Positions 1 through 42,141 of a DNA stretch of 64,000 nt are shown piece by piece. The DNA is taken from contig JAQURC010000006.1 in the NCBI GenBank assembly GCA_028715785.1, positions 21,630 to 85,629 of the forward strand, in the 5' to 3' direction. This DNA is from Candidatus Omnitrophota bacterium. Its GTDB lineage: Bacteria; Omnitrophota; Gorgyraeia; Gygaellales; Profunditerraquicolaceae. Below the pieces are notes generated by a model, which saw nothing but the letters and a program-made list of their open reading frames with translations, searched no databases and was not told the origin of the DNA. A program made the translations under genes and the position numbers. Each line of letters opens with the position of its first letter. Positions within the stretch are counted from its first letter, which is position 1.

Positions 1-113
1 TCGGCTCCATCGGTTTTAATTTTGGCACGGCAGACGTCCATCGTTACGATGCCCGAATCACTGATGCGGGAAAATTTTTACTTTTAGCCAGCGGGCAAAA
101 TACTGCCGAATTT

Positions 114-917
114 ATGGGCCGGGTGAATAAAATCAGGGCATTAATTGGCCAAGCTCATGAAAAAGGCGCAGCAGCATTCGTTGTTTCAGGCTTAAAGAAA
201 GATAAGATAGAACTGCTGCTGGAGGCAGTTAACAATGTGCTGCATAAAGGTGATAAAGTAGTAGTGGTGGGCGCTATCAATGCCTATCCTTTAGCCGCCG
301 AAGGAAAGACTACCGGTAAAATGGAGATTAAAAAAGACGCTTTGGAAACCTGGAAAGAAGTAGTTGAAGCGGCAAAAGCCAAAGGTATTGATTTATACTA
401 TCCTAAGGCGCTTAAAATAGTGAAAGATTTAACTACAGCGAAAAACGAAGATATTCAGGTTATTCAGGACGGAAATATTCCTGAGGATTATGTGATTGGC
501 GATGTGGCTGAACAGGGGCTTACAGAGATATTTAATATTCTTGAGGATGAGAATGTTAAATTGGTATTACAATCCGGCCCTGTTGGGCCGTTTGACTTAA
601 ATGATGTTCTCGCTGAAGGCAGTAACAAATTTCAGCAAAAATTGGCAGAGTTATCGTTAAAGAAAAAAGTAGTTTCTCTTGGTTCCGATACTCAAAAGGC
701 CAATAAAAAAGCAGGCGTGGAGGGCAAATTCCCCGATCAATTTACCGACGGCGGTTCGTTCCTTGATGCCTTAACTTGTCCGAAAGGCGAAGATTGTCCG
801 GCTATTAGCGCATTAAAAGAATCGGCAAAAATATATGCTGGGGTTTTAGCCAAAGATATTGAAAAAGAGGCCGAAAAAGTAGAAACGGCTGCAGGTGAAG
901 TTACGACAAAGAATTAA
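114..917 (+). CDS. Hypothetical protein, no recognisable motifs. The frame is open upstream to position 3 with an in-frame ATG at 48, so the gene may be 5'-partial and continue beyond the window edge.
   Basis: Long ORF with coherent codon usage, same strand and 50 nt upstream of the giant ORF. No stop codon in frame between positions 3 and 114. Confidence 0.5.
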   Translation: MGRVNKIRALIGQAHEKGAAAFVVSGLKKDKIELLLEAVNNVLHKGDKVVVVGAINAYPLAAEGKTTGKMEIKKDALETWKEVVEAAKAKGIDLYYPKALKIVKDLTTAKNEDIQVIQDGNIPEDYVIGDVAEQGLTEIFNILEDENVKLVLQSGPVGPFDLNDVLAEGSNKFQQKLAELSLKKKVVSLGSDTQKANKKAGVEGKFPDQFTDGGSFLDALTCPKGEDCPAISALKESAKIYAGVLAKDIEKEAEKVETAAGEVTTKN

Positions 918-939: not shown

Positions 940-965
940 GTAGGGGGCGTTTAAACGTCCCCTAC
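940..965. repeat. Palindromic hairpin element, family P1 (GTAGGGGGCG-TTTAAA-CGTCCCCTAC), copy A. It is immediately followed by a perfect DnaA-box 9-mer TGTGGATAA at 968-976.
   Basis: Near-perfect 26-nt inverted repeat centred on GTTTAAAC. The same architecture recurs at 9822, 42096 and 63610. Confidence 0.75.
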
Positions 966-966
966 A

Positions 967-3900
967 ATGTGGATAACTAATAGCTCCGGGAAGACAATGC
1001 GTAAATCAAAATTCAGCCCCTGGATAAGGTCTGTTGCTTTATTAGTAGTGGCTGTTTTTCTGCCGCAGCAGGTAATTTACGCCGGCAGCATCACCGATGA
1101 AATTACGTCTCGTCTCCCCAGCGTATCCAGCCTTAAATCAAGCGTTCAATCCACCATCTCCACCGCCCAATCCTATGTTTCTAAAGCCAATAGCGCCTAC
1201 ACTTCCGCAAGCAATGTTTACAACGCCGTAAAAGCCTCTACCGGCCTATCGGTAAGAAGCTTTGTCTCTCCCTTAAGCAGTATCAATGTCCAAACTATTA
1301 AAACTACTGCCGGCATAGCTACTGCCGCCCTTACCCGTAATCCCCAGGCAGGAATAGCCATAGCCAATACCAATTGGGCCAAGACGATATCTAATGGCCT
1401 TCCCGCAATAAAAAATTCTATTTACGATAAAGCAATCTGGGCAAGAGACCAGACTATATTCAAACCCGGTTTTAACGATAGCCCGGAAGGCCAAGAACAT
1501 TGGAAAGCTCTTGGCACAGCTTTTATCTTTATAACCGGCCCGGCTGGAGCAGCTGAAGGATTGCTTTCAAGCGCTGGCGGATTAGTGACTGTCAGTGTTG
1601 CCCGATACGCGCCTTCTTTAGCGATAAGAGGCGGTTCTTGGGCTTTGCAGGGCAGCCGGTTAATAGAATGGGTAGGGCCGAAAGTGGGGCAGGGCAGCAG
1701 TTGGGTATTTAATAGCCGGCCGGTCGCAGCTTATGGCAAATATGTGCTTGTGCCTGCGGGAATAGAGGTAATGGGTAATACTCTTTACGGTTATTCTCCG
1801 TTTAAATCCGTCGCGTTTACAACTTATAACTCTAATCAAGGGCAGATTACTAATTTGATGGGGGATATCAGCAGAAGGCAGCACTCGCTTGAGGCAGGGA
1901 GTTTTGCCGCTGAAAATTATGAACCGCTGATCAGCGATTTGTCAACCGCGTTTCCCGGTAACACTGCTACGCCCGAAGGAGTAAAGAGTTATTTACAGAA
2001 GAATGAAGGTAAATATCGCGGGGTTATATCCAATGATGCGCAGATTTCCTCCGATTTGGCAGTAATAAGTAATTTAAGCAACGACAATAAACACCAGGCA
2101 GGTAAATTCAATTCTTTTGAAAAAGGGTTTACTGCGTTGGCAGAAGTTAATTATGCCGCAGTTAACGCATTAGGCAATGGAATAAATAGTTCAGGTATTC
2201 CTCTTGCGGGTGAATTTATTAAATCCGTAGGTTCTTTTACCCCGCTTACCGGGCTTTCAATCGGCGGCTCTGTGGGCGCTGACCCCGGCCAAGGATTATA
2301 TGGTTTTGCGAATTTCTTTGCCAGTCCGGTTGAAAATGGTATTGGGCTTCGCGAAGGTTCAATTATTGAGCGTTTATCAAACCGCGAATTTTCGGCGCTT
2401 TTAACAGGCGCAGATTATCATTCTAATTATAGAAACCTTGGGAAAGCCGCAGGCAGCGCTTTTATTATGTTGGGCGGCGGCAGGCAGGTTTCAGGAGCGG
2501 CTAAGTCCGTGAAAGCAAAAGCAGGGACGTTAGATTCATTTTTGTCCGTTCATCCGGATATTAACGCTGTTGTAGCGCACCCTTACTTTAAACCCGCGGC
2601 GCACGCCTTAATATTGACCCTGCCGCTGGTGGGCGCAGCGCTATGGGAAGGTTATCAAAATAATAACTTAGGTAAACCTTTTGCTGCTACTACAGTGATG
2701 GCGGCAAATATGTTTGCGCCTTCTCTTGTTGCCAGGAGTAGATTTAATTCTAACCAGCAACTCGATCCTTTAATGAGTCCTAAAAACGATTTTCCTAAGA
2801 AATCCCCTATACCGGTGAAGAGTTTATTCGAGGATCAGGTAATGACTCTTAAAAGCATGGTTTCCAGCGGGACAAACGACCGCTTGGCGGTAATAAGAGG
2901 TTTAGGCACCGGTAAGACCACAGCCTTGTTAGCTTATATTTTGCCGTATAAAATAGGTGATAACCTAAAGAGAGGCAAGGGCACTCTTATATTGACTCCT
3001 AATGATGGGGTTACTAATGATGTGAAAGCGGTTCTCCGGGGGGCCAATGACGTTGGATTCAATCATCAAGAAATTCAGAAGCGGTTAGGAACAAATGTTA
3101 ATTTCCCTAAAGAGATAACTGAAAAGAAACTAAAAATTGAAAGTGTAACCAAAACTGAAGATAAACTTAAGCAGGAGCAGGATTTTATCGATAAGGTTAT
3201 GAATAATGATGTAGTGGTTATGCCGTATGAACTTTATAGTTCAATTTATCATACTTATTTAATGCGGCCAGGCCGAATGGACGCGGCCAGAGAAAAAGTT
3301 ATCAACAGGATTAAAGACAGTAATTTTCTTATGGATGAAGTTGATCTGCCCGCGTTTCTTCCTTCTTTGATGATGAGTGAGGGCAGAATGTATGTTCCTG
3401 AGGGTAATCCAGAATACAATTACTGGCAGGATGTGGCGGGGAAAAGCCGGCAGATTTATGATAAAGTTAAATATGACAAGGTTAATTCTAATGATATGAA
3501 ATTAGATAAGATAGAAGGCGAAACAAGCGCGGAATTAGAGTTTAGAACTATGGCTCAGGGGCAGAAGTTATTGAGTGAACGAATTCCGGGAATAGAAGAA
3601 TTGCCTTTGCCGGATTCCGCAACAGTGCGGAACTTAGTCCGGGAAATAAAAAATAAACATTCAGAAATAGGATACACTGACCAGGAAATTGCCGAGCATA
3701 TAGCCCATGGAACCTGGGGGTATCGGTCATATGAATTAAGAAACTCGTTTACTAAAGAAGAATACGCTGTTAAGACCGAGGCTGTTCCGGCAGCCGATAT
3801 AGATACATACGGTCCCAAAAAAGCTGTGGATACCGTAAAGATCGGAGGCGTGGAAGGCAGGGATATTCATAATTTTGATTTGCATATACCCGCGGGCCAA

Positions 3901-6513
3901 CAGCAAATCTTAGAAATACTTCACGGTGCCAAGCTTATTTCCCGGCCCTTAAAAGGGGATCATGTGGGTAACGCTATCGATGCTTTAGAAATATTAGGAG
4001 GTAGTATTGGATTCACAGGCACTGTTTCTGATACAGCCAAGCCTGTTCTTGAAAAAGCAGGCTTTACAAAGTTCGATTATGGGCAGGTAAAAGCTTCTGA
4101 TTACGAAGCCCCGGTTGTAAACGCAGATTTGAGCCAGACAATAAAGCAAGTCACAGATGGTATTGTCAATAACCGGGGGGATCGGCTTGATATCGATATA
4201 ACCCCGAATAATCCCCTTTCCCGTCTTATTAAAAAAGTTTTAATATCCAAGGGAATTGCTCCCGCGAAATTGGCAAAAGAGGGGGAAAATTATAAATTTA
4301 TAGAAGGAAAATATGTTCATATCGGAGGCCGGACTCCGGAAAAGGCTGCCCAGGCATTATTGGATTCTTTGAAAACCGAAAAAGCCCCTTATGCTATCGT
4401 CGGGACCGCCAATGAAATCGGCAGAGGCCTGAATTTTGATCCCGCGCCTTATTTAGCCAAAGATGGCACAAAAGTAGCGGTAAATCTTATTGAGCCGGAG
4501 TTGATGACCGCCACCCAGGTTAACCAGGGAGCGGGCCGTATCGGGGGGAAATTCCGATTTACAAATATAAAAGATAAAGAAGGTAATCTTCATAATCCGG
4601 AAAAAATCGTCCGCCTTCTGATGAGCAAAGATATGATGCGGCCAATGCCTGAATTTGAAGAAGCGCTGAAATTAGATAATTCTCAAGATGGTGTAAAAAG
4701 CCTTAAAATTATGGAAGCCCTGCAGGATGTCTGGAATAAAAACGAGAGAGAGGTAGTTGCCAGATCGGGCCTTTCTTCAGAGAGAATCGACAATAAAGTA
4801 GTGAAAAGTGAATTCAAGGAAGTAGATATGCCTACTACTTTGGAGGAAATAAAAGAGAAAGATGCCAAGGATTACCTTGTTTTAAAAGGCTACACGACTG
4901 AAAGTATTGTTAAAAAAGGAGAAGCATATATAAAGGAGAATAAGCTTACGATTAAGGGATTACGGTTTATGCAATTGCTTAAGGAGGCCGAGGCATTATT
5001 GGATAAGCAGCATAAGATTTTGGATAAAATTACTGCGCTTCGCATTTTGAATATAGATAATCCCGTCCAATTCGCGATAGGTTTGACTGAAAAGGGCATC
5101 GTAGAGCTTGAAGATTACAATAAGAGAGGGTTAACTTCCGTTATGTGCTTAGGAAGGGTATTAAAGCCGTTTAATACGGATATTTCAAGCGAAGAAATAA
5201 AACAATATCAGGATATCATAAGCAGCGCTTTGGAACAGAAGCTTGAATTCGTTGAAGGGCTGATAAATAAAAATAAGATAAAAATAGACGATAACGGGAC
5301 AAAAGAGTTAATTCTAAAGAAATTAGGGCTGCTAAGGGGCTCTTTAGCCAATATCCAGGAAATATCCCGTCAGATATCCGACGGATATGCTAAAAATAAA
5401 GGCACTGTTCTTCCAGCAGACAAGTTGCGTTTAAAATCCGCCTACCGTGAATTCGAAAATATTATGGCGTATCAGGATTTAGAGGATATCAGCGCTAAAC
5501 TTGGTTCTCCGGCAATAACTGACCTGATTCCTTTGTTTATTCCCAATGCCGGCACCGATGAGATCGCGAAATTCTCCGCGATTTTTGATTTTGCCAAGGA
5601 TAACAATATTAACTTGGCCCCGTATAATTTATTTGAATTGTTTAATTTGACTGACGGTAACAATAAAATTGATTTTGCCAAATTTATTGACAAGAACACC
5701 GGGGATCCGTATCTAAAAATCTATGCGCAACGATTAGCCCTTTATGAAAACGTTTTAGCCAAACAAATGCAATATTATATCCAATTATTTAGCGGAAAAA
5801 CAAAAGATGCAAAAGAATATGAACAGGGCTTGCAGGAAGATGTCGATTTCTTGAGGAATTTTGACATCGATCCAACAAGGGGCGCCCGGCTTAATTTAGC
5901 TCAACTAAGAAAATTGTCGGATGGAAAGCTCTCCGATAAATTATTGTTAAGAATTTATTTGGGTTTATGCGTTTCCGATGAAGAAATCGAAAATTTTATT
6001 CTTGACGAAGGAATTAATAATATAGTTTTAAAGAAAGAAGGATCGCAAGAAGTATCCGAGGCCTTGGCAGAACTAATTCGCCTTGGAAAATTATACGGGA
6101 TGGAAAGGGCAATAAGAGAGGTGCAGGCAAAATATGCCCCTGATGTAGTAAATGGAGCAATAAAGGAATATTTAGCAAATATAGGACAAGGAAAGTATTT
6201 CAGGCCCGAATACTTTAATACAATACAGGGGGGTATTATTGATGCGGTTTCTACCCTGGCGCCTTTAATAAATAGAGAAGGAGCGATTAACGCAGCTGCG
6301 GTTATGGGTATAGGCCTTCTAAGATATCCGGTTTCAGCAAGTTTTAAGGCTATTACCGAGGCAATTTTTAATACCAATTCTCCGGAGCAACGGCTTCGGG
6401 CTATCAGCGATATCAAAGCAACCCTTGACATCCTTCCTCCAACAGTATCAACCGCGCCTGCCTTACCAGCAGTCGATTCGAAAACAGTTGAAGTGGCCGA
6501 AACCGCCGTATAA
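967..6513 (+). CDS. Giant secreted or membrane-anchored protein (1848 aa) with an internal SF2-helicase-like ATPase core. The true start is probably the Met at 997 (MRKSKFSPWIRSVALLVVAVFLP..., signal-peptide-like), because the 967 ATG lies inside the conserved repeat flank.
   Basis: N-terminal hydrophobic signal/anchor, then an S/T/A-rich region. Walker A GLGTGKTT, motif Ia-like LILTPNDG, Walker B LMDEVD, motif V-like GTANEIGRGLNFD, motif VI-like QGAGRIGG. Long C-terminal alpha-helical, K/E-rich region. Confidence 0.7.
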   Translation: MWITNSSGKTMRKSKFSPWIRSVALLVVAVFLPQQVIYAGSITDEITSRLPSVSSLKSSVQSTISTAQSYVSKANSAYTSASNVYNAVKASTGLSVRSFVSPLSSINVQTIKTTAGIATAALTRNPQAGIAIANTNWAKTISNGLPAIKNSIYDKAIWARDQTIFKPGFNDSPEGQEHWKALGTAFIFITGPAGAAEGLLSSAGGLVTVSVARYAPSLAIRGGSWALQGSRLIEWVGPKVGQGSSWVFNSRPVAAYGKYVLVPAGIEVMGNTLYGYSPFKSVAFTTYNSNQGQITNLMGDISRRQHSLEAGSFAAENYEPLISDLSTAFPGNTATPEGVKSYLQKNEGKYRGVISNDAQISSDLAVISNLSNDNKHQAGKFNSFEKGFTALAEVNYAAVNALGNGINSSGIPLAGEFIKSVGSFTPLTGLSIGGSVGADPGQGLYGFANFFASPVENGIGLREGSIIERLSNREFSALLTGADYHSNYRNLGKAAGSAFIMLGGGRQVSGAAKSVKAKAGTLDSFLSVHPDINAVVAHPYFKPAAHALILTLPLVGAALWEGYQNNNLGKPFAATTVMAANMFAPSLVARSRFNSNQQLDPLMSPKNDFPKKSPIPVKSLFEDQVMTLKSMVSSGTNDRLAVIRGLGTGKTTALLAYILPYKIGDNLKRGKGTLILTPNDGVTNDVKAVLRGANDVGFNHQEIQKRLGTNVNFPKEITEKKLKIESVTKTEDKLKQEQDFIDKVMNNDVVVMPYELYSSIYHTYLMRPGRMDAAREKVINRIKDSNFLMDEVDLPAFLPSLMMSEGRMYVPEGNPEYNYWQDVAGKSRQIYDKVKYDKVNSNDMKLDKIEGETSAELEFRTMAQGQKLLSERIPGIEELPLPDSATVRNLVREIKNKHSEIGYTDQEIAEHIAHGTWGYRSYELRNSFTKEEYAVKTEAVPAADIDTYGPKKAVDTVKIGGVEGRDIHNFDLHIPAGQQQILEILHGAKLISRPLKGDHVGNAIDALEILGGSIGFTGTVSDTAKPVLEKAGFTKFDYGQVKASDYEAPVVNADLSQTIKQVTDGIVNNRGDRLDIDITPNNPLSRLIKKVLISKGIAPAKLAKEGENYKFIEGKYVHIGGRTPEKAAQALLDSLKTEKAPYAIVGTANEIGRGLNFDPAPYLAKDGTKVAVNLIEPELMTATQVNQGAGRIGGKFRFTNIKDKEGNLHNPEKIVRLLMSKDMMRPMPEFEEALKLDNSQDGVKSLKIMEALQDVWNKNEREVVARSGLSSERIDNKVVKSEFKEVDMPTTLEEIKEKDAKDYLVLKGYTTESIVKKGEAYIKENKLTIKGLRFMQLLKEAEALLDKQHKILDKITALRILNIDNPVQFAIGLTEKGIVELEDYNKRGLTSVMCLGRVLKPFNTDISSEEIKQYQDIISSALEQKLEFVEGLINKNKIKIDDNGTKELILKKLGLLRGSLANIQEISRQISDGYAKNKGTVLPADKLRLKSAYREFENIMAYQDLEDISAKLGSPAITDLIPLFIPNAGTDEIAKFSAIFDFAKDNNINLAPYNLFELFNLTDGNNKIDFAKFIDKNTGDPYLKIYAQRLALYENVLAKQMQYYIQLFSGKTKDAKEYEQGLQEDVDFLRNFDIDPTRGARLNLAQLRKLSDGKLSDKLLLRIYLGLCVSDEEIENFILDEGINNIVLKKEGSQEVSEALAELIRLGKLYGMERAIREVQAKYAPDVVNGAIKEYLANIGQGKYFRPEYFNTIQGGIIDAVSTLAPLINREGAINAAAVMGIGLLRYPVSASFKAITEAIFNTNSPEQRLRAISDIKATLDILPPTVSTAPALPAVDSKTVEVAETAV

Positions 6514-6801: not shown

Positions 6802-7497
6802 ATGGGCGAACGCAGAAAATTAGCCAGATGGCAGGTAAATCAACACGCCGCGCTTAAATTGGAGCAGGCCGCCGAGGAATTATTCTGCCAAATCAAGGAT
6901 ATCAATTCTAAAGGGGCAAGGATTACTTTAAATACAAAATTGCCGCAGGATAGCCGGCTTAAGATGAGTTTACGGCTCTCTGAAAATTATGCCGTTGAGG
7001 CGGAAGTTTGGGTTGCCTGGCACAAGGTTATTAACGGCATTAACCACTACGGGCTTTATTTTAGCAGGATAAAGGATGCGGATAAGGATAAAATTTATAA
7101 ATTTATCAACAGGTATCGTTCTAATGGTTTGAAACAGGAACCGTCGCCGGCAGCTGCAAGGGTTGAGAAAGAGAAAGGAGGTGAAGGGATGCATGACCAT
7201 CGGATATTCGAAAGGTTCAGGAAGGAATTTTCCGCCCGCTTTATCGGCTTAGACGGAAAAGAGGGGCAGGCTCAAACATTTGATGTAAGCGCAAAAGGCC
7301 TGGGGTTATCAACCACAAATGAATTGGAATCCAAGACTCCTCTAGAGATCTGGTTGGATGTTCCTGGCAGCACCGATCCTTTATACACAAGGGGGCAGGT
7401 TGTCTGGTCAAGGTTGGCAGGGGTAAGCGGATATCGTTCGGGTATCGAATTGGAAAGGGCTGATCTTATGGGTGTTTCGCGCCTCCTGCGCGCCTGA
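6802..7497 (+). CDS. Tandem PilZ-domain protein, a putative c-di-GMP receptor.
   Basis: Two RxxxR ... D/NxSxxG motif pairs: RRKLAR...DINSKGA in the N-terminal half and RIFERFR...DVSAKGLGL in the C-terminal half. Confidence 0.55.
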   Translation: MGERRKLARWQVNQHAALKLEQAAEELFCQIKDINSKGARITLNTKLPQDSRLKMSLRLSENYAVEAEVWVAWHKVINGINHYGLYFSRIKDADKDKIYKFINRYRSNGLKQEPSPAAARVEKEKGGEGMHDHRIFERFRKEFSARFIGLDGKEGQAQTFDVSAKGLGLSTTNELESKTPLEIWLDVPGSTDPLYTRGQVVWSRLAGVSGYRSGIELERADLMGVSRLLRA

Positions 7498-7615: not shown

Positions 7616-8914
7616 ATGTGGTTTAAGAACATACTTCTGGGTATTTCTATATTATTTTCAGCATTAGGCTGTTCGGGCCAAAAAGTTGATTCCAAACCCA
7701 CCATAACTATCTGGCACTGGATGACCGACCGCGACGCAACCTTCCAGGATCTGGCAAAAAAATATGAAACTTTAACCGGCGTAAAAGTAAATTTCGAGCT
7801 TTATGCCCCTTCGGACGCTTATTCACAGAAGATCCGCGCCGCAGCCCAGGGCATAAACCTTCCGGATGTTTTTGGCATTTTGGGAGAAAAGAGGGATTTT
7901 GCTTCTTTTATCAAAGCCGGCCACATTTTAGATCTTACCTCCTATATGGAAGCCAATAATAACGGTTGGAAGAACAGTTTTTTCCCCAAGGCGCTGGCGG
8001 TAAATGAATTTGCCGCAGGCAATAGTTATGGGATAAATCCCGGCACCTACGGTGTCCCTGTCGATATTATGACCATCCAGATGGTCTATAACAAAAAACT
8101 TTTTACGCAGTTGGGATTAAATCCCAGCCGGCCTCCGAAGACCCTCCAGGAGTTTTTAGATATCGGTCCGAAAATCCAGGCCGCCGGAATGCAGGGGCTG
8201 GTTTCCGGATGGGGCGAGGTTTGGATGATTGATTGCCTGGCCAATGACTATGCCTTCAATATTATGGGTAAAGATAAGGTAATGGCGACGATCAGGGGCC
8301 AGGTCCCTTATACCGATCCGGATTGGGTCAAGGTATTTTCTATCTTTAAGCAGATGCAGGACTCCGGTGTTTTAGCCAAAGGCCTGGTAACCATGATCAA
8401 TAAATCCGCCGAGCAGCTTTTTGCCAATGAAAAAGCTGTTTTTGCTTTTAACGGTTCCTGGTGCGTGAATGTTTATAAGGGGATGAATCCTAATCTTGAA
8501 TACGGGGCAATACTTCCGCCGCAGGCCTCTGACAAATATCCGATGTCTATCTGGGGCGGGGCAGGTTCTTCTTTTATGGTCAACGCGCGTTCTAAAAATA
8601 AGGAAGAAGCAATTAAGTTTTTAGTCTGGCTGACCGGCCAGGACCAGCAGGCATATTTATCCAGGGCCACCAATAACCTGCCTGCCAACAAAAACTGTTT
8701 GGCTAAGATCCCCGAGGTGCTTGCCCAATTTGCCCGCGGCATGGAGTATGCCACCCATCCGAACGTCTGGGGGGTTTCGGAGTTTTCTTTGGTCATCGAG
8801 GCTTTTGACCGCGGTATCCAATCCATCATTATCGGAGAGAAAACCCCCGAGCAGGTTGCTGATGAAGTTCAGAAAGTAAAGGAAAGGGAATTAAATAAGA
8901 GAAGAGCCAAATAG
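7616..8914 (+). CDS. ABC transporter substrate-binding lipoprotein, carbohydrate (CUT1) type.
   Basis: Lipoprotein signal peptide with lipobox LGC|SG. Length and composition typical of family-1 sugar-binding proteins. Followed by two MalFG-type permease genes. Confidence 0.7.
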   Translation: MWFKNILLGISILFSALGCSGQKVDSKPTITIWHWMTDRDATFQDLAKKYETLTGVKVNFELYAPSDAYSQKIRAAAQGINLPDVFGILGEKRDFASFIKAGHILDLTSYMEANNNGWKNSFFPKALAVNEFAAGNSYGINPGTYGVPVDIMTIQMVYNKKLFTQLGLNPSRPPKTLQEFLDIGPKIQAAGMQGLVSGWGEVWMIDCLANDYAFNIMGKDKVMATIRGQVPYTDPDWVKVFSIFKQMQDSGVLAKGLVTMINKSAEQLFANEKAVFAFNGSWCVNVYKGMNPNLEYGAILPPQASDKYPMSIWGGAGSSFMVNARSKNKEEAIKFLVWLTGQDQQAYLSRATNNLPANKNCLAKIPEVLAQFARGMEYATHPNVWGVSEFSLVIEAFDRGIQSIIIGEKTPEQVADEVQKVKERELNKRRAK

Positions 8915-8917
8915 TCA

Positions 8918-9811
8918 ATGACACACAAATCAATGAAGCTGAAAGATACATTAGAGAATTACACCTTTGTCCTGCCGGCAGTAACCATATTTTCCATATT
9001 CTATATTATTCCTTTTATCTGGGTTTTTCAGTTGGGCCTCTTTGATTGGGACGGGATCTCTTTTAGCAAGACGTTTGTGGGCTTGGCAAATTTCAAAGAG
9101 ATCTTCCTGCAGGATAAAAACTGGTGGCAATCGATGTGGAACGCCGGTTACATCACTTTGATCGCCCTTACTTTTCAGAATATCCTGGCTTTTATGCTCG
9201 CCTGGGCCTGCGACCGCGAAATGAGGATGAAAAATTTTTACCGGGTGATTTTTTTTATCCCTCCGGTCCTCTCGGAAGTGGTCGTGGGCATGGCCTGGCG
9301 TTTTATCATCAATGACATCGACGGGGCGAATGTCATCAATCGCACGCTTACACAAATGGGTTTTCCGCATTTAGTGCATAATTGGTTATCCGACCCCAAC
9401 ACCGCACTTACTACCGTTGCGATTGTGCATTGCTGGAAGGGTTTTGGCTGGGGGTTCCTGATTTTTCTGGCAGGTCTGCAGACCATACCGCGCGAACTTT
9501 ACGAAGCCGCCCGGGTTGACGGGGCAAGCGCCTGGCAGTCATTTAAAAAAGTAACCATACCTTTGATGATCCCGGTGATGGTGCTGGTGGCCATCCTTAC
9601 GGTATTGGGCACGATGCAGGTGTTTGTATTGATTGTCAGCCTGGTGGGAGGCGAATTTGCCGGGCATACTTCGGTTCCGGTTTTAAGGATCCTGGCTTCT
9701 ATGCGCGGCTCATCGCGTTTTGGTTATGCCTGCGCCCAGGGGATTACTTTCGGTCTGGTATTGATTATAATATCTTTTATCCAATACCGTTTTTCCAAAA
9801 AAGGGCAATAG
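8918..9811 (+). CDS. Sugar ABC transporter permease (MalF/UgpA-like).
   Basis: Six hydrophobic segments; EAA loop motif YEAARVDGASAWQSFKKVTIPL. Confidence 0.75.
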   Translation: MTHKSMKLKDTLENYTFVLPAVTIFSIFYIIPFIWVFQLGLFDWDGISFSKTFVGLANFKEIFLQDKNWWQSMWNAGYITLIALTFQNILAFMLAWACDREMRMKNFYRVIFFIPPVLSEVVVGMAWRFIINDIDGANVINRTLTQMGFPHLVHNWLSDPNTALTTVAIVHCWKGFGWGFLIFLAGLQTIPRELYEAARVDGASAWQSFKKVTIPLMIPVMVLVAILTVLGTMQVFVLIVSLVGGEFAGHTSVPVLRILASMRGSSRFGYACAQGITFGLVLIIISFIQYRFSKKGQ

Positions 9812-9821
9812 AGTTATCAAT

Positions 9822-9858
9822 GTAGCGGAGGTTTAAACCTCCGCTACATTGTGGATAA
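9822..9858. repeat. Palindromic hairpin family P1, copy B (GTAGCGGAGG-TTTAAA-CCTCCGCTAC), plus an adjacent perfect DnaA-box 9-mer TGTGGATAA at 9850-9858.
   Basis: Perfect 26-nt inverted repeat lying intercistronically between the two permease genes. Shares the flank AWTGTGGATAAYT with copy A. Confidence 0.75.
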
Positions 9859-9886
9859 TTTTCAAGAAAGGCCAGTGAGATAAAGA

Positions 9887-10735
9887 ATGATGAACTCATT
9901 TTATTATAAGGGTAAAAAGATCGTGGTAAATACGCTGATCCATCTTTTCCTGATTAGCGTGGCAATAACCTGTCTTTATCCGCTGCTTTGGATGATCGTT
10001 TCAAGCCTTAAAACCCAGGATATGATCTTTAAGGATATTTCTTTGATCCCGCATCAGTTCCGCCTGGAGAATTATGTCCTGGCCTGGAAAGAAGGGGGAT
10101 TCGGCGGAAACTTTTTTAACAGTATTATTTATACCGTTTCGGTAGTCTTCGGGATAGTGATTATTTCTTCCATGGCCGCCTATGCTTTCAGCCGCTTACG
10201 TTTTGCGGGAAGTAAATTTTTGTTCATCATGTTTATGGCGGCAATGATGATCCCCATCCCGGGAAGTTTTGTCGCCCTCTATGTTTTATTAAATAAACTG
10301 CATTTAAGGAATACTCCCATCGGTTATATTCTGTGCATGATTAACGTGGGGCTCTCCACCAGCATATTTTTGCTGAAAACTTTTTTTGATAAGATGCCCA
10401 AGGAGCTGGAAGATGCCGCGCGCATCGACGGCTGCTCGAAAATCGGGATTTGGTGGCATGTTGCCCTGCCGCTGGCCAAGCCGGTGCTGGCGGTGGTGAT
10501 TGTTTTTAACGCTTTAGCCGTATGGAACGAATATATCCTGGCGCTGATTATTTTTGATAACCGCAAGTTCATGCCGCTTCAGGTGGCCTTGCAGTCTTTT
10601 CAGGGCGAGTTCGTCACCAATTATCCGCTGTTAATGGCCGGATTGACGATTACGGCCCTGCCGATTATTTTAGTATATCTTTTTATGCAGAAGTATATTA
10701 TCAAGGGCGTTACCCAGGGAGCGGTAGTAGGATGA
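9887..10735 (+). CDS. Sugar ABC transporter permease (MalG/UgpE-like).
   Basis: EAA motif LEDAARIDGCSKIGIWWHVALPL; six TM segments. Confidence 0.75.
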   Translation: MMNSFYYKGKKIVVNTLIHLFLISVAITCLYPLLWMIVSSLKTQDMIFKDISLIPHQFRLENYVLAWKEGGFGGNFFNSIIYTVSVVFGIVIISSMAAYAFSRLRFAGSKFLFIMFMAAMMIPIPGSFVALYVLLNKLHLRNTPIGYILCMINVGLSTSIFLLKTFFDKMPKELEDAARIDGCSKIGIWWHVALPLAKPVLAVVIVFNALAVWNEYILALIIFDNRKFMPLQVALQSFQGEFVTNYPLLMAGLTITALPIILVYLFMQKYIIKGVTQGAVVG

Positions 10736-10758
10736 GTTGTATAAATTTAAAATTTAAT

Positions 10759-10834
10759 GTGTCATTGCGAGCCCGCAGGGCGAAGCAATCTGGGCTTGGA
10801 TTGCTTCGTCGCCTTCGGCTCCTCGCAATGACAC
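10759..10834. repeat. MITE/REP-like palindromic element, family M (terminal inverted repeats GTGTCATTGCGAG ... CTCGCAATGACAC; internal CGAAGCAATC / GATTGCTTCG), copy 1.
   Basis: 76-nt element with terminal and internal inverted repeats. Homologous copies at 15552, 24941 and 57939. Confidence 0.8.
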
Positions 10835-13119
10835 TGCCAGTGTTTTTCATTTGCCAATGTACTGACGTGCTGGCTTCCCAGCCTGTTCCTCCCGCTGCTA
10901 CCGCCAGGCCTTCCTCAAGCGAGTTGACCACTAAGGCCTGGATTGCCCACGGCAAAAGGGATATCGAGGCGACGAATAAATACACTCAGGAATGTATCGA
11001 TCTATACAGTTTCCAAGCGGATAAAGAGCAGGCAGCTTTAGCCGCATTGCCTAAGAATAAAAAAGAGATCGAGGCGGTGCAGGTATTAAACGATGTGGCT
11101 ACCTGTTATTTTATTCAGGCTGAGGGCCTGATGCGCCAGCAAAAAATCGATGAGGCCAAGAAAATATTTAAATTGATCATCGATAAATATTCTTACGGAC
11201 AAGCCTGGGACCCGCGCGGCTGGTTCTGGTCGATAAAACTGGCTGCCGAACAAACGATCAAAAAAATCGAAACCGGCTCGATAGAAGTGGAGCAGAAGAA
11301 AAAAGTCAGCCAGCTTGCGACAAAATTGACTTTATTCGATCCGGGTAAAGAAGAAATTGTCGATTACGCAAAATACGGCGAGTTTCAAAACATCGGGACC
11401 AAAGATTATCAGTATGTTGTCGGCGACCAGAAGGGTTTAATCGAGGCAGCCGGAGAAGGCGTCTACCCCAATAACAGCGCAGTCAGGAAAGACCCGATTT
11501 TTAAGCAGGTGATTAAAGACAAGCGCCTGGAGGGGGATGTCTGGGATTTTCTTTATTCCCCGGATCTAGAGGCGGCATTTGTCAAATGGACAACCTCCAG
11601 CGAGCCGCAAGGGGTGAGATTATATGGCACCGGTTTGATTTTGGAGAAGGCCGGTTTAATCACCCAGGCGATCAAATGCTATTATTCGATTGTCGTGCAT
11701 TTCCCCGGCAGCTACGGCTGGACTTACTGGCATACGCCTTGGTATGTGGGCCAGGCCTCGATTGCCAAAATAAATTTTCTTCTCAGGCGCAACCCGCAGT
11801 TAGGTTATAAACTGGAAGGCGCGCAGATCGATATCATCAATGGTTTTGATAATGATATTTCCAATGATGTTGCGGTGGCTAATCCCGGCAAATTCGTGAA
11901 AGTTGATATGGGCCAGGAAGCGGCCAAGGCCAGGCCTACGGCTGAATCCGTGGGGATTAAAAAGAAGGTAGGACGCGGCAAGGTGCGTTTAGTGCAGTAT
12001 AATAATAATGACTGGCAGCTTCTGGTCGAGGACAAGCCTTATATTATTAAAGCGGTTACTTACGCTCCCACTAAGGTTGGCCAGTCTCCGGATGACGGAA
12101 CGCTTAAGAACTGGATGGAGGAGGATTTGAATAAAAACGGCAAAATCGACGGCCCCTATGATGCCTTCGTGGATAAGAACAGGAACAACATCCAGGATGC
12201 CGATGAGCCGTCGGTCGGTGATTTTAAATTGATGCAGGATATGGGTATTAATACCATACGCCTCTACCATCATCCTTTAAAGGTAAACAAAGAATTAATG
12301 CGCGATATGTATAATGCTTATGGGATAGGCGTAATTATGGGGGATTTTTTAGGTAAATATGCCATCGGCTCCGGGGCTGCCTGGAATCCCGGGACCGACT
12401 ATAACAATGAAGCGCAAAAGAAGAAAATGATCGAGTCGGTCAAAGGGATGGTCAATGAATTTAAAGACGAGCCCTACATTTTATTCTGGCTCCTGGGCAA
12501 TGAGAATGTTTACGGTTATGCCTGCAACGCCAATGAATACCCGGAAGCTTATTTTAAATTCGCCAACGAGGTGGCCAGGATAATTAAGTCTATCGACCCA
12601 AATCATCCGGTAGCCATATGCAGCGGCGATATTTTATTTCTGGATAAATTCGGCAAGAGCGCCCCGGATATAGATATCTTCGGTACCAATGCCTACCGCG
12701 GGGATTATGGTTTCGGCGCTTTTTGGAGGCAGGTCAAGGAACAGGCAGGCAAGCCGGCTTTTATCACCGAGTTTGGCTGTCCGGCATACGCTGAAGGGAA
12801 AAGTGTCGATGAAGCCGAGGAGCTGCAGGCGCAATATCATTTGGGTTCCTGGGAGGACATTCAGGATAATATGGCGTTTGGCGGCACAGCAGGTAACGCA
12901 ATAGGCGCAGTGATCTTTGAATGGCTGGATGAATGGTGGAAGGCTTATGAGCCGGGGATCCATGACACCAAGGGTTTGTGGACCGGGCCGTTTCCCGACG
13001 GATATATGCATGAGGAGTGGCTGGGTGTCAGCGGCCAGGGGGATGGAAAACTAAGCCCGTTTTTGCGGCAACTGCGCAAAGCGTATTATATGTATCAGAA
13101 AAAGTGGAAACAGAATTAA
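10828..13119 (+). CDS. Secreted clan GH-A (TIM-barrel) glycoside hydrolase with a large N-terminal extension. Probable start is ATG 10828 (MTLPVFFICQ..., signal-like); the track's 10732 start reads through the repeat element.
   Basis: C-terminal half carries clan-A catalytic signatures LLGNENVYG (acid/base NE) and FITEFGCPAY (nucleophile E), plus EWLDEWWK, all shared with the 14263 gene. EF-hand/dockerin-like loop DLNKNGKIDGPYD. GH family (GH5/GH2-like) not assignable by eye. Confidence 0.6.
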   Translation: MTLPVFFICQCTDVLASQPVPPAATARPSSSELTTKAWIAHGKRDIEATNKYTQECIDLYSFQADKEQAALAALPKNKKEIEAVQVLNDVATCYFIQAEGLMRQQKIDEAKKIFKLIIDKYSYGQAWDPRGWFWSIKLAAEQTIKKIETGSIEVEQKKKVSQLATKLTLFDPGKEEIVDYAKYGEFQNIGTKDYQYVVGDQKGLIEAAGEGVYPNNSAVRKDPIFKQVIKDKRLEGDVWDFLYSPDLEAAFVKWTTSSEPQGVRLYGTGLILEKAGLITQAIKCYYSIVVHFPGSYGWTYWHTPWYVGQASIAKINFLLRRNPQLGYKLEGAQIDIINGFDNDISNDVAVANPGKFVKVDMGQEAAKARPTAESVGIKKKVGRGKVRLVQYNNNDWQLLVEDKPYIIKAVTYAPTKVGQSPDDGTLKNWMEEDLNKNGKIDGPYDAFVDKNRNNIQDADEPSVGDFKLMQDMGINTIRLYHHPLKVNKELMRDMYNAYGIGVIMGDFLGKYAIGSGAAWNPGTDYNNEAQKKKMIESVKGMVNEFKDEPYILFWLLGNENVYGYACNANEYPEAYFKFANEVARIIKSIDPNHPVAICSGDILFLDKFGKSAPDIDIFGTNAYRGDYGFGAFWRQVKEQAGKPAFITEFGCPAYAEGKSVDEAEELQAQYHLGSWEDIQDNMAFGGTAGNAIGAVIFEWLDEWWKAYEPGIHDTKGLWTGPFPDGYMHEEWLGVSGQGDGKLSPFLRQLRKAYYMYQKKWKQN

Positions 13120-13133
13120 AACGGAGGTGTAAG

Positions 13134-14282
13134 ATGAGAAAGTTGTCAGCAGTATTACTGGCTTTAAGTCTTTTGGTCCCGGCAATGGCCGCTTCCGAAG
13201 AAAAAGCCGCAGGCCCCAAGGAGTTTGTGGTCTACTTGGATAAAAACGCCAAGGAGAATCATTATATTCCTAGCGGCTGGATGGGTGATTACGGCGATAT
13301 CAAAATGAATGACCAGTCAGCGGATAATCCGCATGGCGGGACAACCAGCATTCAATTCATTTATAGCGCCAAGAAATCACAGAATCAGGGTTGGGCCGGA
13401 GTTTACTGGCAGAATCCTTCGAACAACTGGGGAAACAAAAAAGGCGGTTTTGACTTGACCGGCATGACCAAACTTACTTTTTGGGCCCGCGGGGCAAAAG
13501 GCGGTGAAGTGATCCAGAAGGTGATGGTCGGCGGGATCAAGGGGACATATCCTGATACCGCGATGGTGGAGATGGGGCCCATTGAATTGACCAATGCCTG
13601 GAAACAGTATACGGTTAATTTAGTAGGTAAGGATCTTTCTTATGTTAACGGCGCTTTTGGCTGGACTTCAACCGCCGATTTAAATCCGGAGGGAGCCGCG
13701 TTTTATATCGATGATATAAAATTTGAGGCGGATGCGGCTTTGAAACCCGAGGGTAAAAAACAACAGGCAATGCCGTTCTATATTTATGCCGACCGCTCAA
13801 CCGCAGCCAACCATTTTATACCTAGCGGCTGGATGGGCGATTACGGCGATATAAAATATGACGGGGCTTCCAAAGAAGACCCGTATTTAGGCGATACTTG
13901 CGTTAAAATAATCTACAACGGAAAAGCCGCCCAAGGCGCGCGCTGGGCGGGGATTTTCTGGCAGAATCCGGCTAATAACTGGGGCAGCGTTGATGCGGGT
14001 TTTGATCTTTCCAAAGCCGCCAAGCTTACTTTTTGGGCCCGCGGGGCAAAAGGCGGAGAACGCATCGAAGAGTTCAAGGTCGGCGGGATTATGGGGGAGT
14101 TTTCGGATTCAGACAGCGCGACCATCGGCCCGGTCCTCTTGAATAAAGAGTGGACCCAATATACTATTGATTTAAAAGGCAAAGATTTGTCGTATGTTAT
14201 CGGCGGTTTTTGCTGGTCGGCAAATGTGGACAACAACCCGGAAGGCGCTACATTCTATCTGGATGAGATCAAGTTTGAATAA
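13134..14282 (+). CDS. Secreted protein made of two tandem ~170-aa repeats, putatively a carbohydrate-binding module protein.
   Basis: Signal peptide MRKLSAVLLALSLLVPAMAAS, RBS GGAGG before ATG 13134. Internal duplication (HYIPSGWMGDYGDIK...FWARGAKGGE...YVNGAFGW... and HFIPSGWMGDYGDIK...FWARGAKGGE...YVIGGFCW...). Aromatic-rich beta-sandwich-like composition. Confidence 0.6.
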   Translation: MRKLSAVLLALSLLVPAMAASEEKAAGPKEFVVYLDKNAKENHYIPSGWMGDYGDIKMNDQSADNPHGGTTSIQFIYSAKKSQNQGWAGVYWQNPSNNWGNKKGGFDLTGMTKLTFWARGAKGGEVIQKVMVGGIKGTYPDTAMVEMGPIELTNAWKQYTVNLVGKDLSYVNGAFGWTSTADLNPEGAAFYIDDIKFEADAALKPEGKKQQAMPFYIYADRSTAANHFIPSGWMGDYGDIKYDGASKEDPYLGDTCVKIIYNGKAAQGARWAGIFWQNPANNWGSVDAGFDLSKAAKLTFWARGAKGGERIEEFKVGGIMGEFSDSDSATIGPVLLNKEWTQYTIDLKGKDLSYVIGGFCWSANVDNNPEGATFYLDEIKFE

Positions 14283-15540
14283 TAAAAATAGTAATTACAA
14301 AGCTACAGGTTACAGGCATTTCTTGCTTGCAGCCTGTAGCTTTTTGTTTGTATTTATTTTGTCCGCCTGCCAGCCCAAGCAAGGCGCCTATATCCAAAAG
14401 TTAAAAAATCAACACTACGTTCTTATCGTAAACGCCCGGCCGTATATCGTCAAAGGAGTTTGTTATAACCCCATCCCGATAGGTTCAAATCAGGAGTATG
14501 ACTGGTGGGGTGATCCGAATAAGCCCTGGATTACCGACGGCAAACTGATGAAGGATATGGGGGTCAATACTATCCGTCTTTATCAAGCGCATGAGCATCC
14601 CGAAGAAGTAAGGCAGGTAATCCGGGATTTATATAATTTATACGGCATCCGGACACTCCTGGGCGACTGGCTGGGGTTCTGGGAATACCCCTGTCCTTTT
14701 TACGGCGACCAGAAATTCCAGGATAAAGTAAAGGCTCAGGTGTTGGAGATGGTCAAGCTTTATAAAGATGAGCCCGGGATCCTCGGATGGATTTTAGGAA
14801 ATGAGAATAATTATTCCTGCCTGGGGCATGTCAATCCCTGGTCAAGCCCCGAGGTTGACCAGGAAACAAACCCCCAGAAACAAAAAGCGCTGCGCGCAAA
14901 AATTTATTATTCTTTTGTAAATGATATCTCCAAGGAAATACATAAAATCGACTCCAGGCATCCGGTAGGGTTAGGCAACGGGGAGTTGGTGGGGTTGGAT
15001 TCTGCCGACAAATTTTGCCGGGATGTTGATTTTGTGGCCTGTATAATTTACCGCGGCAAGACCTTCGGCAATCTTTTTAGATCCCTCAAGATGACATTCG
15101 ATAAGCCGGTATTATTGTCCGAATTCGGCGCGGATTGCCACGATGCCTACTTAAAAAAAGAAGACCAGAATATGCAGGCGTTCTTCCTGCAATCCCAGTG
15201 GCAGCAGATCTACGAAAACTTAGCCAATAATAAAACAGGGGCGGGCAATTGCATAGGCGGGACGGTTTTTGAATGGACGGATGAATGGTGGAAGCACAGT
15301 TCGGATAATCCGGAAAGCTGGAAGGTCCATGACACCGAAGGCGGCTGGTCCAACGGCAGTTATTATTTTGACATAAAAGTCCCGGGCGGCATGAATATGA
15401 ACGAAGAATGGTTCGGTATATGCGCTTTATCGGAAAACCTTGAAAATGGTCTAAATAAACGTATCCCGCGCAAGGCCTATTATGTTATCAGGGAATTCTG
15501 GAAGCATCCGGTAATTAAAAAAGCGCATAAGAAAAAATAA
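14263..15540 (+). CDS. Clan GH-A glycoside hydrolase lipoprotein, paralogous to the catalytic half of the 10828 gene. Start is uncertain: ATG 14263 overlaps the upstream gene by 20 nt.
   Basis: Lipobox-like FILSAC|QP. Shared motifs WILGNENNYS, LLSEFGADCHD, FEWTDEWWK. Confidence 0.6.
   Translation: MRSSLNNKNSNYKATGYRHFLLAACSFLFVFILSACQPKQGAYIQKLKNQHYVLIVNARPYIVKGVCYNPIPIGSNQEYDWWGDPNKPWITDGKLMKDMGVNTIRLYQAHEHPEEVRQVIRDLYNLYGIRTLLGDWLGFWEYPCPFYGDQKFQDKVKAQVLEMVKLYKDEPGILGWILGNENNYSCLGHVNPWSSPEVDQETNPQKQKALRAKIYYSFVNDISKEIHKIDSRHPVGLGNGELVGLDSADKFCRDVDFVACIIYRGKTFGNLFRSLKMTFDKPVLLSEFGADCHDAYLKKEDQNMQAFFLQSQWQQIYENLANNKTGAGNCIGGTVFEWTDEWWKHSSDNPESWKVHDTEGGWSNGSYYFDIKVPGGMNMNEEWFGICALSENLENGLNKRIPRKAYYVIREFWKHPVIKKAHKKK
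14299..14346 (+). terminator. Candidate intrinsic terminator or intercistronic hairpin (AAAGCTACAGG ... CCTGTAGCTTTTTG).
   Basis: 9-10 bp stem with a 23-nt loop followed by a T-run, just downstream of the 14282 stop. It lies inside the 5' end of the next predicted ORF. Confidence 0.35.
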
Positions 15541-28007: not shown

Positions 28008-28061
28008 ATTTACACAGATTTTACCTGCGTTTAATTTAGAATCAATATGAAAAATGTAATA
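28008..28061 (+). promoter_or_regulatory. Pho-box-like promoter upstream of the porin gene: TTTACA (28008), TTTACC (28019), TTTAAT (28029), then extended -10 TGTAATAT (28054-28061).
   Basis: The sequence TTTACMCAGATTTTACCT is nearly identical to the box at 27544-27561. 11-bp periodicity. Confidence 0.45.
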
Positions 28062-28107
28062 TTGCAGTGATATCAGGGGAGGGTTAACAAAAAAAGGAGG
28101 GACAGGA

Positions 28108-29394: not shown

Positions 29395-29427
29395 CAAGCG
29401 TAATCAGCGAAAAGAGGAGGAATTAAA

Positions 29428-30246: not shown

Positions 30247-30269
30247 AGCGTTTACTCGGTAACCCTAAG

Positions 30270-30300
30270 ATGGCACGGTGGATTTATTCTGCCGTGCCAT
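30270..30300 (+). other. Intercistronic pstS-pstC stem-loop (ATGGCACGG ... CCGTGCCAT, 9-bp perfect stem, 13-nt loop, no U-tract).
   Basis: Perfect inverted repeat between pstS and pstC. It occupies the position taken by a P1 palindrome in operon 2. Candidate mRNA-stabilising or processing hairpin. Confidence 0.5.
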
Positions 30301-30310
30301 TACTCCTATT

Positions 30311-35730: not shown

Positions 35731-35747
35731 ACAGCTAATTCCTCAAC

Positions 35748-41186: not shown

Positions 41187-41220
41187 AAAGGTAATATAAA
41201 TATGAGCAAATGGAGGAGAA

Positions 41221-42075: not shown

Positions 42076-42095
42076 TGCGAAAGTTATTAACAGTT

Positions 42096-42121
42096 GTAGG
42101 GGAGGTTTAAACCTCCCCTAC
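42096..42121. repeat. Palindromic hairpin family P1, copy C (GTAGGGGAGG-TTTAAA-CCTCCCCTAC), intercistronic between pstS2 and pstC2.
   Basis: Perfect 26-nt palindrome centred on GTTTAAAC. Confidence 0.75.
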
Positions 42122-42141
42122 ATTAAGGGTATCAGGCGGCT

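Follow-up and report, generated by a model that had tools for sequence, protein, structure and literature searches.

The window analysed here is a 64,000-nucleotide stretch of a Candidatus Omnitrophota genome (GenBank assembly GCA_028715785.1, contig JAQURC010000006.1, positions 21,630 to 85,629 of the forward strand). Near its beginning lies a giant open reading frame (ORF) on the plus strand, at 967-6513, which encodes a protein of 1848 aa. The product is identical to PHP73_05600, a hypothetical protein from a Candidatus Omnitrophica metagenome-assembled genome at NCBI. Our results show that the protein contains a two-lobed ATPase core related to the superfamily 2 (SF2)/SecA-type motors. The gene appears to be a new, highly divergent and stand-alone variant of the SecA-like module found in the giant proteins of this phylum, and it lies in an operon of glycolytic-enzyme fusions that begin with signal peptides.

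The probable start is ATG 997, giving 1838 aa, rather than ATG 967, because GGGAAG is found 5 nt upstream of the former, no Shine-Dalgarno sequence precedes ATG 967, which abuts a hairpin, and the homologues start with MxKSKFSPW or MKKA. Both the ORF and this start had been proposed in an earlier reading made from the letters of the DNA (the sequence-only reading), and both were borne out. Residue numbers below refer to the 1848-aa product. The hairpin (GTAGGGGGCG-TTTAAA-CGTCCCCTAC), which is near-perfect, separates the upstream fusion gene from the SecA-like gene. No terminator was called there, and the hairpin is probably not conserved in the family, since the intergenic spacing is just ~20-30 nt in several homologue loci. 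The N-terminus had been described as a signal peptide or anchor, and the n-, h- and c-regions of a Sec-type signal peptide are indeed present. The h-region, 12-13 residues long, is the sole segment of the protein with a Kyte-Doolittle (KD) value of at least 1.6 (1.8) and is conserved in seven homologues (mean 1.97). The predicted cleavage site (..VIYA, then G) resembles that of a porin in the same window (..VSYA, then GE; 28060-29391, Pfam Porin_5), and the ..YA site is also common to the neighbouring glycolytic fusions.

An ordered set of SF2 motifs runs through the middle of the protein (Table 1). The five motifs recognised in the sequence-only reading were all verified, with a spacing of 41 aa before motif VI instead of about 45; motif III was absent from its list. 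Searches with the protein and its core against Pfam, NCBIfam, PADLOC, PHROGs and, by phmmer, the PDB returned nothing, or DEAD and Flavi_DEAD matches below threshold. A PDB profile search with a seven-sequence alignment of the core gave weak matches to SF2 lobe 1 (Dicer, DDX, NS3; E 0.006-0.1) and none to SecA. An exhaustive HMMER search of 1.84e9 representative proteins with the core profile of subfamily A (the window protein and its two closest homologues, see below) retrieved eight proteins in all, six of them distant: P0008 (1701 aa), P0009, P0010, P0011 (5845 aa), P0012 and P0013. By BLASTP, the window protein matched P0009 in lobe 1 (2e-20), P0010 in lobe 2 (9e-16), P0011 at 23.6% identity over 479 aa (2e-17) and P0013 at 25.6% identity over 297 aa (1e-14). 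Lobe 2 is covered by P0010, P0012, P0008 and P0011. Walker A and B are canonical in P0009, while P0011 keeps DEFD with a deviant Walker A (GEGKG); lobe 1 of P0011 matches Pfam DEAD at 7.6e-8, over the gathering threshold. P0008, the P0012/P0015 cluster and P0013 sit on short contigs assigned to bins of Micrarchaeia, Bathyarchaeia and Elusimicrobiota (loci L090 and L091 belong to the distant relatives). This patchy spread could be a matter of mis-binned contigs, of transfer, or of episymbiont DNA that ended up in host bins.

The connection to SecA comes through these relatives. Among 24,736 Pfam families, the top match of P0013 is SecA_PP_bind, the SecA preprotein cross-linking domain (PPXD), with E=0.02, below the gathering threshold. 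A SecA hidden Markov model (HMM) and alignment were built from E. coli secA and 80 proteobacterial secA loci (81 SecA sequences). The HMM aligned SecA 293-391 with P0013 residues 196-289 (20.9 bits, P=4.3e-9), where the stretch ..DYYVKDGRVVVMN.GRG...LPAGMMQVLEAKHNV...IVGLTGTA stands opposite SecA ..DYIVKDGEVVIVDEFTGR..GRRWSDGLHQAVEAKEGV...LAGMTGTA. A nine-sequence family profile was collinear with the 81 SecA sequences over SecA 84-636, which comprises the first nucleotide-binding domain (NBD1), the PPXD and the second (NBD2). Its score was 46.6 (P=1.3e-4, probability 53%), against 21.7 +/- 3.2 (max 33) for 60 block-shuffled queries and 17.3 for reversed SecA. The segment of PPXD and motif III alone also aligned with SecA in hhalign (P=8e-4); subfamily A alone fell short of significance (P=0.25). 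In the window protein, the insertion between motifs II and III contains ..EEYAVK..GVEGRDIHNFDLHIPAGQQQILEILHGAKLISRP.., matching SecA ..DYIVKDGEV..TGRxxxGRRWSDGLHQAVEAKEGVxIQ.., and the stretch after Walker B, DEVD...LMMS.G, is SecA-like. The C-terminal 618 aa showed no similarity to the scaffold or wing of SecA (hhalign against the SecA alignment, P=0.27) and had no Pfam match to SecA_SW (PF07516).

AlphaFold2 (AF2) reached a pLDDT of 39 with a three-sequence alignment and of 62.6 with a seven-sequence alignment including distant homologues, in which lobe 1 and the insertion stood at 70-90. In a Foldseek search of the PDB, rank 1 was XPD (7.5e-7), and ranks 2-7, 9, 11 and 12 were SecA2 or SecA (1e-6 to 1e-4), with SecA2 of C. 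difficile and M. tuberculosis among the top matches. TM-scores were low (0.2-0.27) due to poor domain packing in the AF2 model. The two-lobe SF2 fold of the core is established, and together with the homology to SF2/SecA-type ATPases it rules out the concern that the motif matches were chance occurrences. In structure, SecA ranks with the best matches of this model, and the sequence evidence from the insertion singles it out. Thus the SF2-helicase-like core described earlier stands as an SF2/RecA motor, but as a SecA-like one with a PPXD-type insertion and not as a nucleic-acid helicase.

The family is small. A word-indexed search of 5.8e9 proteins found seven proteins, exclusively from Omnitrophota, and P0014 and P0017 were added by later look-ups, giving about nine members; orthologue lengths range from 1641 to 2031 aa. 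A homologue search with the core alignment returned no proteins and one with the N-domain a single protein, candidate selection apparently being swamped by low-complexity words. There are two subfamilies. Subfamily A (the window protein, P0002 and P0003) keeps GxGxGKT and DEVD; at an overall identity of 59-81%, its members show no change in any of the seven motifs, which are all intact. Subfamily B (P0004-P0007 and P0017; loci L001, L004, L088, L089 and L092) has the same operon position, an N-domain ~50% identical to that of A, and the C-domain and tail in common with it.

Table 1. Features of the SecA-like gene and its surroundings in the window (residues of the 1848-aa product; KD, Kyte-Doolittle value)
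Feature	Residues	Window positions	Strand	Basis and remarks
PGK-like C-terminal end of giant fusion		3-917	+	Pfam PGK 1.7e-22; open at window edge; tail ..KDIEKEAEKVETAAGEVTTKN
Hairpin		940-965	+	10-bp stem, one G-U pair, loop TTTAAA; no T-run; read from sequence
Sec-type signal peptide	11-39	997-1083	+	n-region MRKSKFSPWIR, h-region SVALLVVAVFLP, c-region QQVIYA, then G
N-domain	40-600	1084-2766	+	S/T/A/G-rich, conserved orphan; most strongly conserved region of the family (~50-58% identity)
Gly/Ala-rich segment	182-220	1510-1626	+	marginally hydrophobic, KD 1.2-1.3; family mean ~1.05
Hydrophobic hairpin	541-559 and 571-589	2587-2733	+	marginal, KD 1.48 and 1.24; basic RSR after
NBD1 (RecA-like lobe 1)	~620-800	2824-3366	+	motifs; PDB profile matches; AF2 pLDDT 65-89
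Walker A GLGTGKTT	645	2899-2922	+	motif read
Motif Ia LILTPNDG	674	2986-3009	+	motif read
Walker B LMDEVD	788	3328-3345	+	motif read
PPXD-like insertion	~805-1010 (~205 aa)	3379-3996	+	between motifs II and III
Motif III GFTGT	1015	4009-4023	+	aligns with SecA GMTGTA
NBD2 (RecA-like lobe 2)	~1040-1215	4084-4611	+	motifs; collinear hhalign to SecA 420-636; AF2 beta-alpha, pLDDT 50-78
Motif V GTANEIGRGLNFD	1146	4402-4440	+	motif read
Motif VI QGAGRIGG	1187	4525-4548	+	41 aa past motif V
C-terminal domain	~1216-1790	4612-6336	+	K/E-rich, helical; subfamily A vs B hhalign 2.2e-11
C-terminal tail	1791-1848 (58 aa)	6337-6510	+	..AITEAIFNTNSPEQRLRAISDIKATLDILPPTVSTAPALPAVDSKTVEVAETAV; 65-68% identity even to subfamily B
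Tandem-PilZ protein, putative c-di-GMP receptor		6802-7497	+	Pfam PilZ 4.6e-20, two stretches; syntenic in 5/8 loci including the window
Sugar ABC transporter and GH2/GH72-like glycoside hydrolase		7616-13119	+	Pfam
Sugar-binding protein		7616-8914	+	Pfam
Two permeases		8918-9811, 9887-10735	+	Pfam
GH2/GH72-like glycoside hydrolase with TPR		10732-13119	+	Pfam

Outside the core, the composition agrees with the earlier description of an S/T/A-rich N-region and a K/E-rich helical tail of about 600 aa: aa 1-600 are 35-43% S/T/A/G, and aa 1200-1848 are rich in K/R/D/E. The N-domain has invariant motifs, such as GSFxPLTGLSIGG (family alignment; BLASTP against the homologue loci), and no match in Pfam or the PDB; the whole-family profile was blank for the N- and C-domains alike. 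We discarded the possibility that the C-terminal 'LPxTVS' is a sortase signal (LPxTG), as it lacks the G and the phylum is diderm.

Gene order was compared over eight loci, namely the window and seven homologue loci (L001-L004, L088, L089 and L092). The common order is PPDK, a GPI/(GAPDH)/TIM/PGK fusion, (enolase), the SecA-like gene, (iPGM), PilZ, a sugar ABC transporter and a GH2/GH72-like hydrolase, with genes in brackets present in some loci. The SecA-like gene lies directly 3' of glycolytic-enzyme fusions in all seven homologue loci (fusions at L001 1584-9916, L002 815-9967, L003 1034-9928, L004 1-9978, L088 1-9976, L089 1-9971 and L092 103-3066). On contigs that reach far enough, iPGM and/or PilZ come after it, along with the sugar ABC transporter and the glycoside hydrolase, and its stop overlaps the iPGM start in three loci; the downstream order of the window recurs in L004, L088, L089 and L092. 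The transporter part contains a sugar-binding protein, two permeases and (MFS). The encoded enzymes are large: PPDK has 1273-2267 aa, the GPI/(GAPDH)/TIM/PGK fusion, which sometimes includes enolase, 1493-3050 aa, and iPGM 891-1567 aa.

This comparison changes how the neighbours are seen. The ORF directly upstream (114-917), previously taken as unknown, is the PGK-like end of a glycolytic fusion, and its tail ..KDIEKEAEKVETAAGEVTTKN is also present on the GPI-TIM-PGK or TIM-PGK fusions directly upstream of the homologues. The tandem-PilZ gene downstream was confirmed. The suggested module is not one of three genes but a conserved locus of ~30 kb, from PPDK through the glycoside hydrolase; the fusion is found upstream in every homologue locus, and PilZ is syntenic in five of the eight loci. 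The idea of a conjugation or defence translocase was dropped: PADLOC gave 0 matches, PHROGs nothing significant, the context is metabolic and transport-related, and no mobile-element context was seen.

All glycolytic proteins of the operon begin with a Sec-type signal peptide, e.g. MFSQFPKKTLFSKLISGIVAVSFILTSVPVRSYA up to the cleavage site, and have essentially no other transmembrane (TM) segment. Their enzyme domains are very divergent in Pfam (PGK 84-90 bits, TIM 82-96, Enolase_C 58-140), with catalytic signatures partly retained (GAPDH SCTTN, enolase SHRSGETLD, TIM GHSATR). Enolase and iPGM have long extensions, and large parts of the operon enzymes have no Pfam match. Just past the ..YA site there is a D-(K/N)-L-R-(P) motif in the glycolytic proteins and D-E-I-x-S-R-L-P in the SecA-like protein. 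At the other end, the glycolytic proteins carry two short tail types, ..EKEAEKVETAAGEVTTKN and ..ISKFIDSFI. The end of the SecA-like protein, ..VEVAETAV, is acidic and related to these tails (V-E-x-A-E), resembling the ..VETAAGEVTTKN ends of the neighbouring enzymes. The shared post-signal motif and tails may be secondary sorting or docking signals. An operon of signal-peptide-bearing glycolytic fusions is, as far as we could establish, previously undescribed: neither it nor the 1.8-kaa (thousand amino acids) family appears in the accessible portions of two preprints on Omnitrophota proteins (bioRxiv 10.1101/2023.11.21.568195 and 10.64898/2026.06.07.730766).

Elsewhere in the window, two ORFs without Pfam match (383 and 454 aa, at 13131-15537) lie past the glycoside hydrolase. 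The 383-aa ORF has an internal two-fold repeat (HYIPSGWMGDYGDIK...WAGVYWQNP.NNWG...LTFWARGAKGGE), which suggests a tandem carbohydrate-binding-like module. A large orphan ORF of 1451 aa, also without Pfam match, has a signal-peptide-like N-terminus (MFRMLRRILACLLCFTLLFEQSGFAQS; 35739-40091). At 28060-32797 and 41206-45345 there is the Porin_5 porin, then apparently two separate Pst-type (phosphate) transporter operons with genes for a periplasmic binding protein, permease and ATPase, judging by ORF N-termini alone; these look like a duplicated uptake system.

Hydropathy profiles show that the N-terminal h-region alone is clearly hydrophobic, and the segments at aa 182-220, 541-559 and 571-589 are conserved but marginal (KD 1.0-1.5). 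Membrane association is possible for aa 182-220. In all homologues the hairpin at aa 541-589 keeps its hydrophobic character, and it lies ~50 aa ahead of the motor; with the basic RSR after it, it could be a stop-transfer anchor.

The reading we favour, to which we assign a probability of roughly 0.4, is that of a stand-alone SecA-type clamp and motor, tied to the envelope, which handles the co-transcribed giant enzyme fusions during translocation or assembly. The motor module would consist of NBD1, a PPXD-like polypeptide clamp and NBD2, with the SecA scaffold and wing missing. It would be held at the envelope by the Sec signal peptide and the 560-aa N-domain with the weakly hydrophobic hairpin at its end, and the motor would stay in the cytoplasm behind this hairpin. 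Its cargo would be the neighbouring signal-peptide-bearing proteins (PPDK; GPI/GAPDH/TIM/PGK; enolase; iPGM), whose genes are probably co-transcribed with it. Such a dedicated envelope-associated factor could grip very long pre-proteins and aid their translocation or assembly, by an ATP-driven step in subfamily A, window protein included. Omnitrophota giant proteins carry SecA-like domains in cis, and this factor would be their equivalent in trans.

Several results weigh against this reading. The window protein gave no match to the curated SecA models (PF07517, PF01043, NCBIfam SecA) even at E<=10, and phmmer and hmmsearch found no SecA match for it in the PDB. When single E. coli sequences were used in hhalign, SecA was not separated from RhlE, RhlB, UvrB and Rep, the non-SecA SF2 families being compared as single sequences and not as family alignments. 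The assignment to SecA is therefore transitive, through bridging homologues. In subfamily B, the middle ~680 aa, similar in length to the middle part of subfamily A, contain neither Walker A nor DEVD and are not recognisably related to subfamily A or SecA: none of the hhalign comparisons of this core, whether with subfamily A, with the extended family profile or with SecA, reached significance (P 0.11-0.27), which also left a by-eye SecA-like reading of its motifs unsupported. Either extreme divergence or replacement of the motor could explain this region. The Walker A Lys and DEVD are thus conserved in three of about nine members, those of subfamily A, and missing in six, so an ATP-driven step cannot be family-wide. 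No gene for a SecY-like channel or Asp protein was found in the eight loci. Both aa 182-220 and 541-589 stayed below standard TM thresholds in a simple insertion test on the Hessa scale, the values of which are reportedly those of Hessa et al. 2005. As no convincing TM segment follows the signal peptide, at face value the whole protein, motor included, would be extracytoplasmic and without ATP. Finally, the N- and C-terminal features that the protein shares with its presumed cargo suggest that it is co-cargo rather than machinery.

A rival reading is that the protein is fully exported with the glycolytic fusions and organises the enzymes outside the cytoplasm as a scaffold or clamp, be it in the periplasm, at the cell surface or within a prey or host cell; the subfamily A proteins might even be ATPases that run on ATP produced locally by co-exported PGK and PPDK. 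We consider this rather unlikely. The signal peptide is of the cleavable type, with a short h-region and a porin-like ..YA site, no later segment reaches TM hydrophobicity, and the neighbours, likewise signal-peptide-only, share the D-x-x-x-R-L-P-like motif and the acidic tail. The Walker loss in most family members also fits an ATP-free location, and a 2026 preprint predicts a periplasmic or extracellular place for the metabolic content of signal-peptide-bearing long Omnitrophota proteins (bioRxiv 10.64898/2026.06.07.730766). However, Walker A and B are canonical in subfamily A and in the distant P0009, with DEFD still kept in P0011 beside its deviant Walker A; the conserved hairpin with its basic residues could be an anchor, and there is no evident substrate supply for periplasmic glycolysis. 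To our knowledge, no extracytoplasmic SF2/SecA-type ATPase has been found, which we also count against export of the whole protein. A bolder version makes the entire operon an extracytoplasmic energy-plus-motor system: TIM, GAPDH, PGK, iPGM, enolase and PPDK, nearly all of lower glycolysis, together with GPI, would leave the cytoplasm as giant fusions by means of their Sec signal peptides and reach an enlarged periplasm, the cell surface or a prey or host cell, where they would make the ATP that fuels the co-exported SecA-like ATPase as it threads polypeptides. This is distinctly improbable; if true, it would be the first ATP-driven SF2/SecA-type motor outside the bacterial cytoplasm.

The core might also be a degenerate, non-catalytic relic in a protein whose N-domain, C-domain and tail do the work, for example as a structural or docking protein of the envelope for the fusions. 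These three parts are conserved across the subfamilies (50-68% identity; hhalign 2e-11) and the core is not, subfamily B has no NTPase motifs, and motif VI retains just one of SecA's arginines. We nevertheless regard a relic as quite unlikely, since all seven motifs are intact and invariant in subfamily A, and they are kept at 23-29% identity in P0009 and partly in P0011, which argues for selection on nucleotide binding in the lineage. An SF2 nucleic-acid helicase or translocase (XPD/DinG-, RIG-I- or DEAD-box-like) with a long N-extension, handling DNA or RNA at the envelope, for instance, is in our view very improbable. It would fit the RecA1/RecA2 core with its motifs, the weak Pfam and PDB matches to DEAD, Dicer and NS3, and the hhalign score of single RhlE, which is as good as that of single SecA. 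It does not fit the insertion that separates motifs II and III, the sequence of which is homologous to the SecA PPXD, nor the SecA-like DEVD..LMMS.G after Walker B. Neither an XPD/DinG-type Fe-S cysteine cluster nor a Q-motif is visible in the core sequence, no nucleic-acid-related genes are found nearby, PADLOC and PHROGs gave no match, and the context in 8/8 loci is one of export and sugar metabolism. Membership in XPD/DinG was rejected on the missing Fe-S cysteines and on hhalign with E. coli DinG (P=0.15).

Omnitrophota are ultra-small and probably predatory or host-dependent, their giant proteins are unexplained, and how these pass the membrane is an open question. The locus described here has the suspected export module in one gene and the multi-enzyme passenger in others, with products of 1.5-3 kaa where giant proteins have 30-150 kaa; being separate and manageable, these genes offer a tractable model for the function of divergent SecA-like domains. 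An operon with homologues of PPDK, GPI, GAPDH, TIM, PGK, enolase and iPGM, all bearing Sec signal peptides, is remarkable in itself. Should the enzymes prove to be active extracytoplasmically, the carbon and energy metabolism of these nanobacteria would have to be seen differently. The core further indicates that SecA-type motors can drift beneath the detection limit of every curated model.

Among known systems, SF2 helicases such as XPD/DinG and the RIG-I-like proteins differ from the window protein in that it has no Fe-S cysteines and no nucleic-acid context, and its insertion matches the SecA PPXD. Canonical SecA (PF07517, PF01043, PF07516) shares with it the motif order I, Ia, II (DEVD), PPXD, III (G-x-TGT), V (..GRG..) and VI (..GR.G), the collinear profile-profile alignment over SecA 84-636, and the match between the AF2 model and SecA structures. 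Identity to SecA is only ~13%, however, with no direct HMM match and one Arg in motif VI; the helical scaffold, wing and two-helix finger are absent, and there is an unrelated C-region of 630 aa. The window protein has a signal peptide and a 560-aa N-domain, unlike SecA, which has no signal peptide and is found in the cytoplasm in soluble or peripheral form. In the accessory Sec systems (SecA2, SecA2/SecY2), which export particular large substrates encoded nearby, a SecA paralogue likewise stands beside a few unusual, very large signal-peptide proteins, but SecA2 is clearly recognisable as SecA and has no signal peptide, and the SecY2/Asp genes have no equivalent at our locus.

The closest parallel is the SecA module of the Omnitrophota giant proteins. 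According to West-Roberts et al. 2023 (bioRxiv 10.1101/2023.11.21.568195), most of these proteins have divergent SecA DEAD and preprotein-binding domains without scaffold or wing, which adjoin TM anchors, form a long-branch clade apart from the canonical SecA of the same genomes, and may export the giant protein itself. With SecA-like domains thus known from membrane-associated proteins of the phylum, the description of an exported helicase-like NTPase as highly unusual was overstated. In a later preprint on long Omnitrophota proteins, 20 proteins are reported to make up an architecture group with PF07517, one class is termed 'multi-enzyme metabolic', and a signal peptide or TM segment is given for 94% of the long proteins (bioRxiv 10.64898/2026.06.07.730766). 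The window protein differs from the giant-protein modules in being a separate 1.8-kaa gene (1848 aa) and not part of a polypeptide of >10-30 kaa, P0011 (5845 aa) being the sole long relative of its core. It is also too divergent for PF07517/PF01043, begins with a signal peptide of its own, of the cleavable type, and with an orphan N-domain, lies inside a glycolytic-fusion operon, and belongs to a family in which most orthologues have lost the Walker motifs. The anchors of the giant proteins may have a counterpart here in the conserved weak hairpin at aa 541-589 (KD 1.2-1.5), which fails the Hessa scale. Both nevertheless combine a divergent SecA DEAD domain and PPXD, without scaffold or wing, with hydrophobic segments nearby (TM anchors in the giant proteins, a candidate anchor here), and both are tied to very long multi-enzyme proteins with signal peptides or TM segments and to genes for sugar import and glycoside hydrolases.

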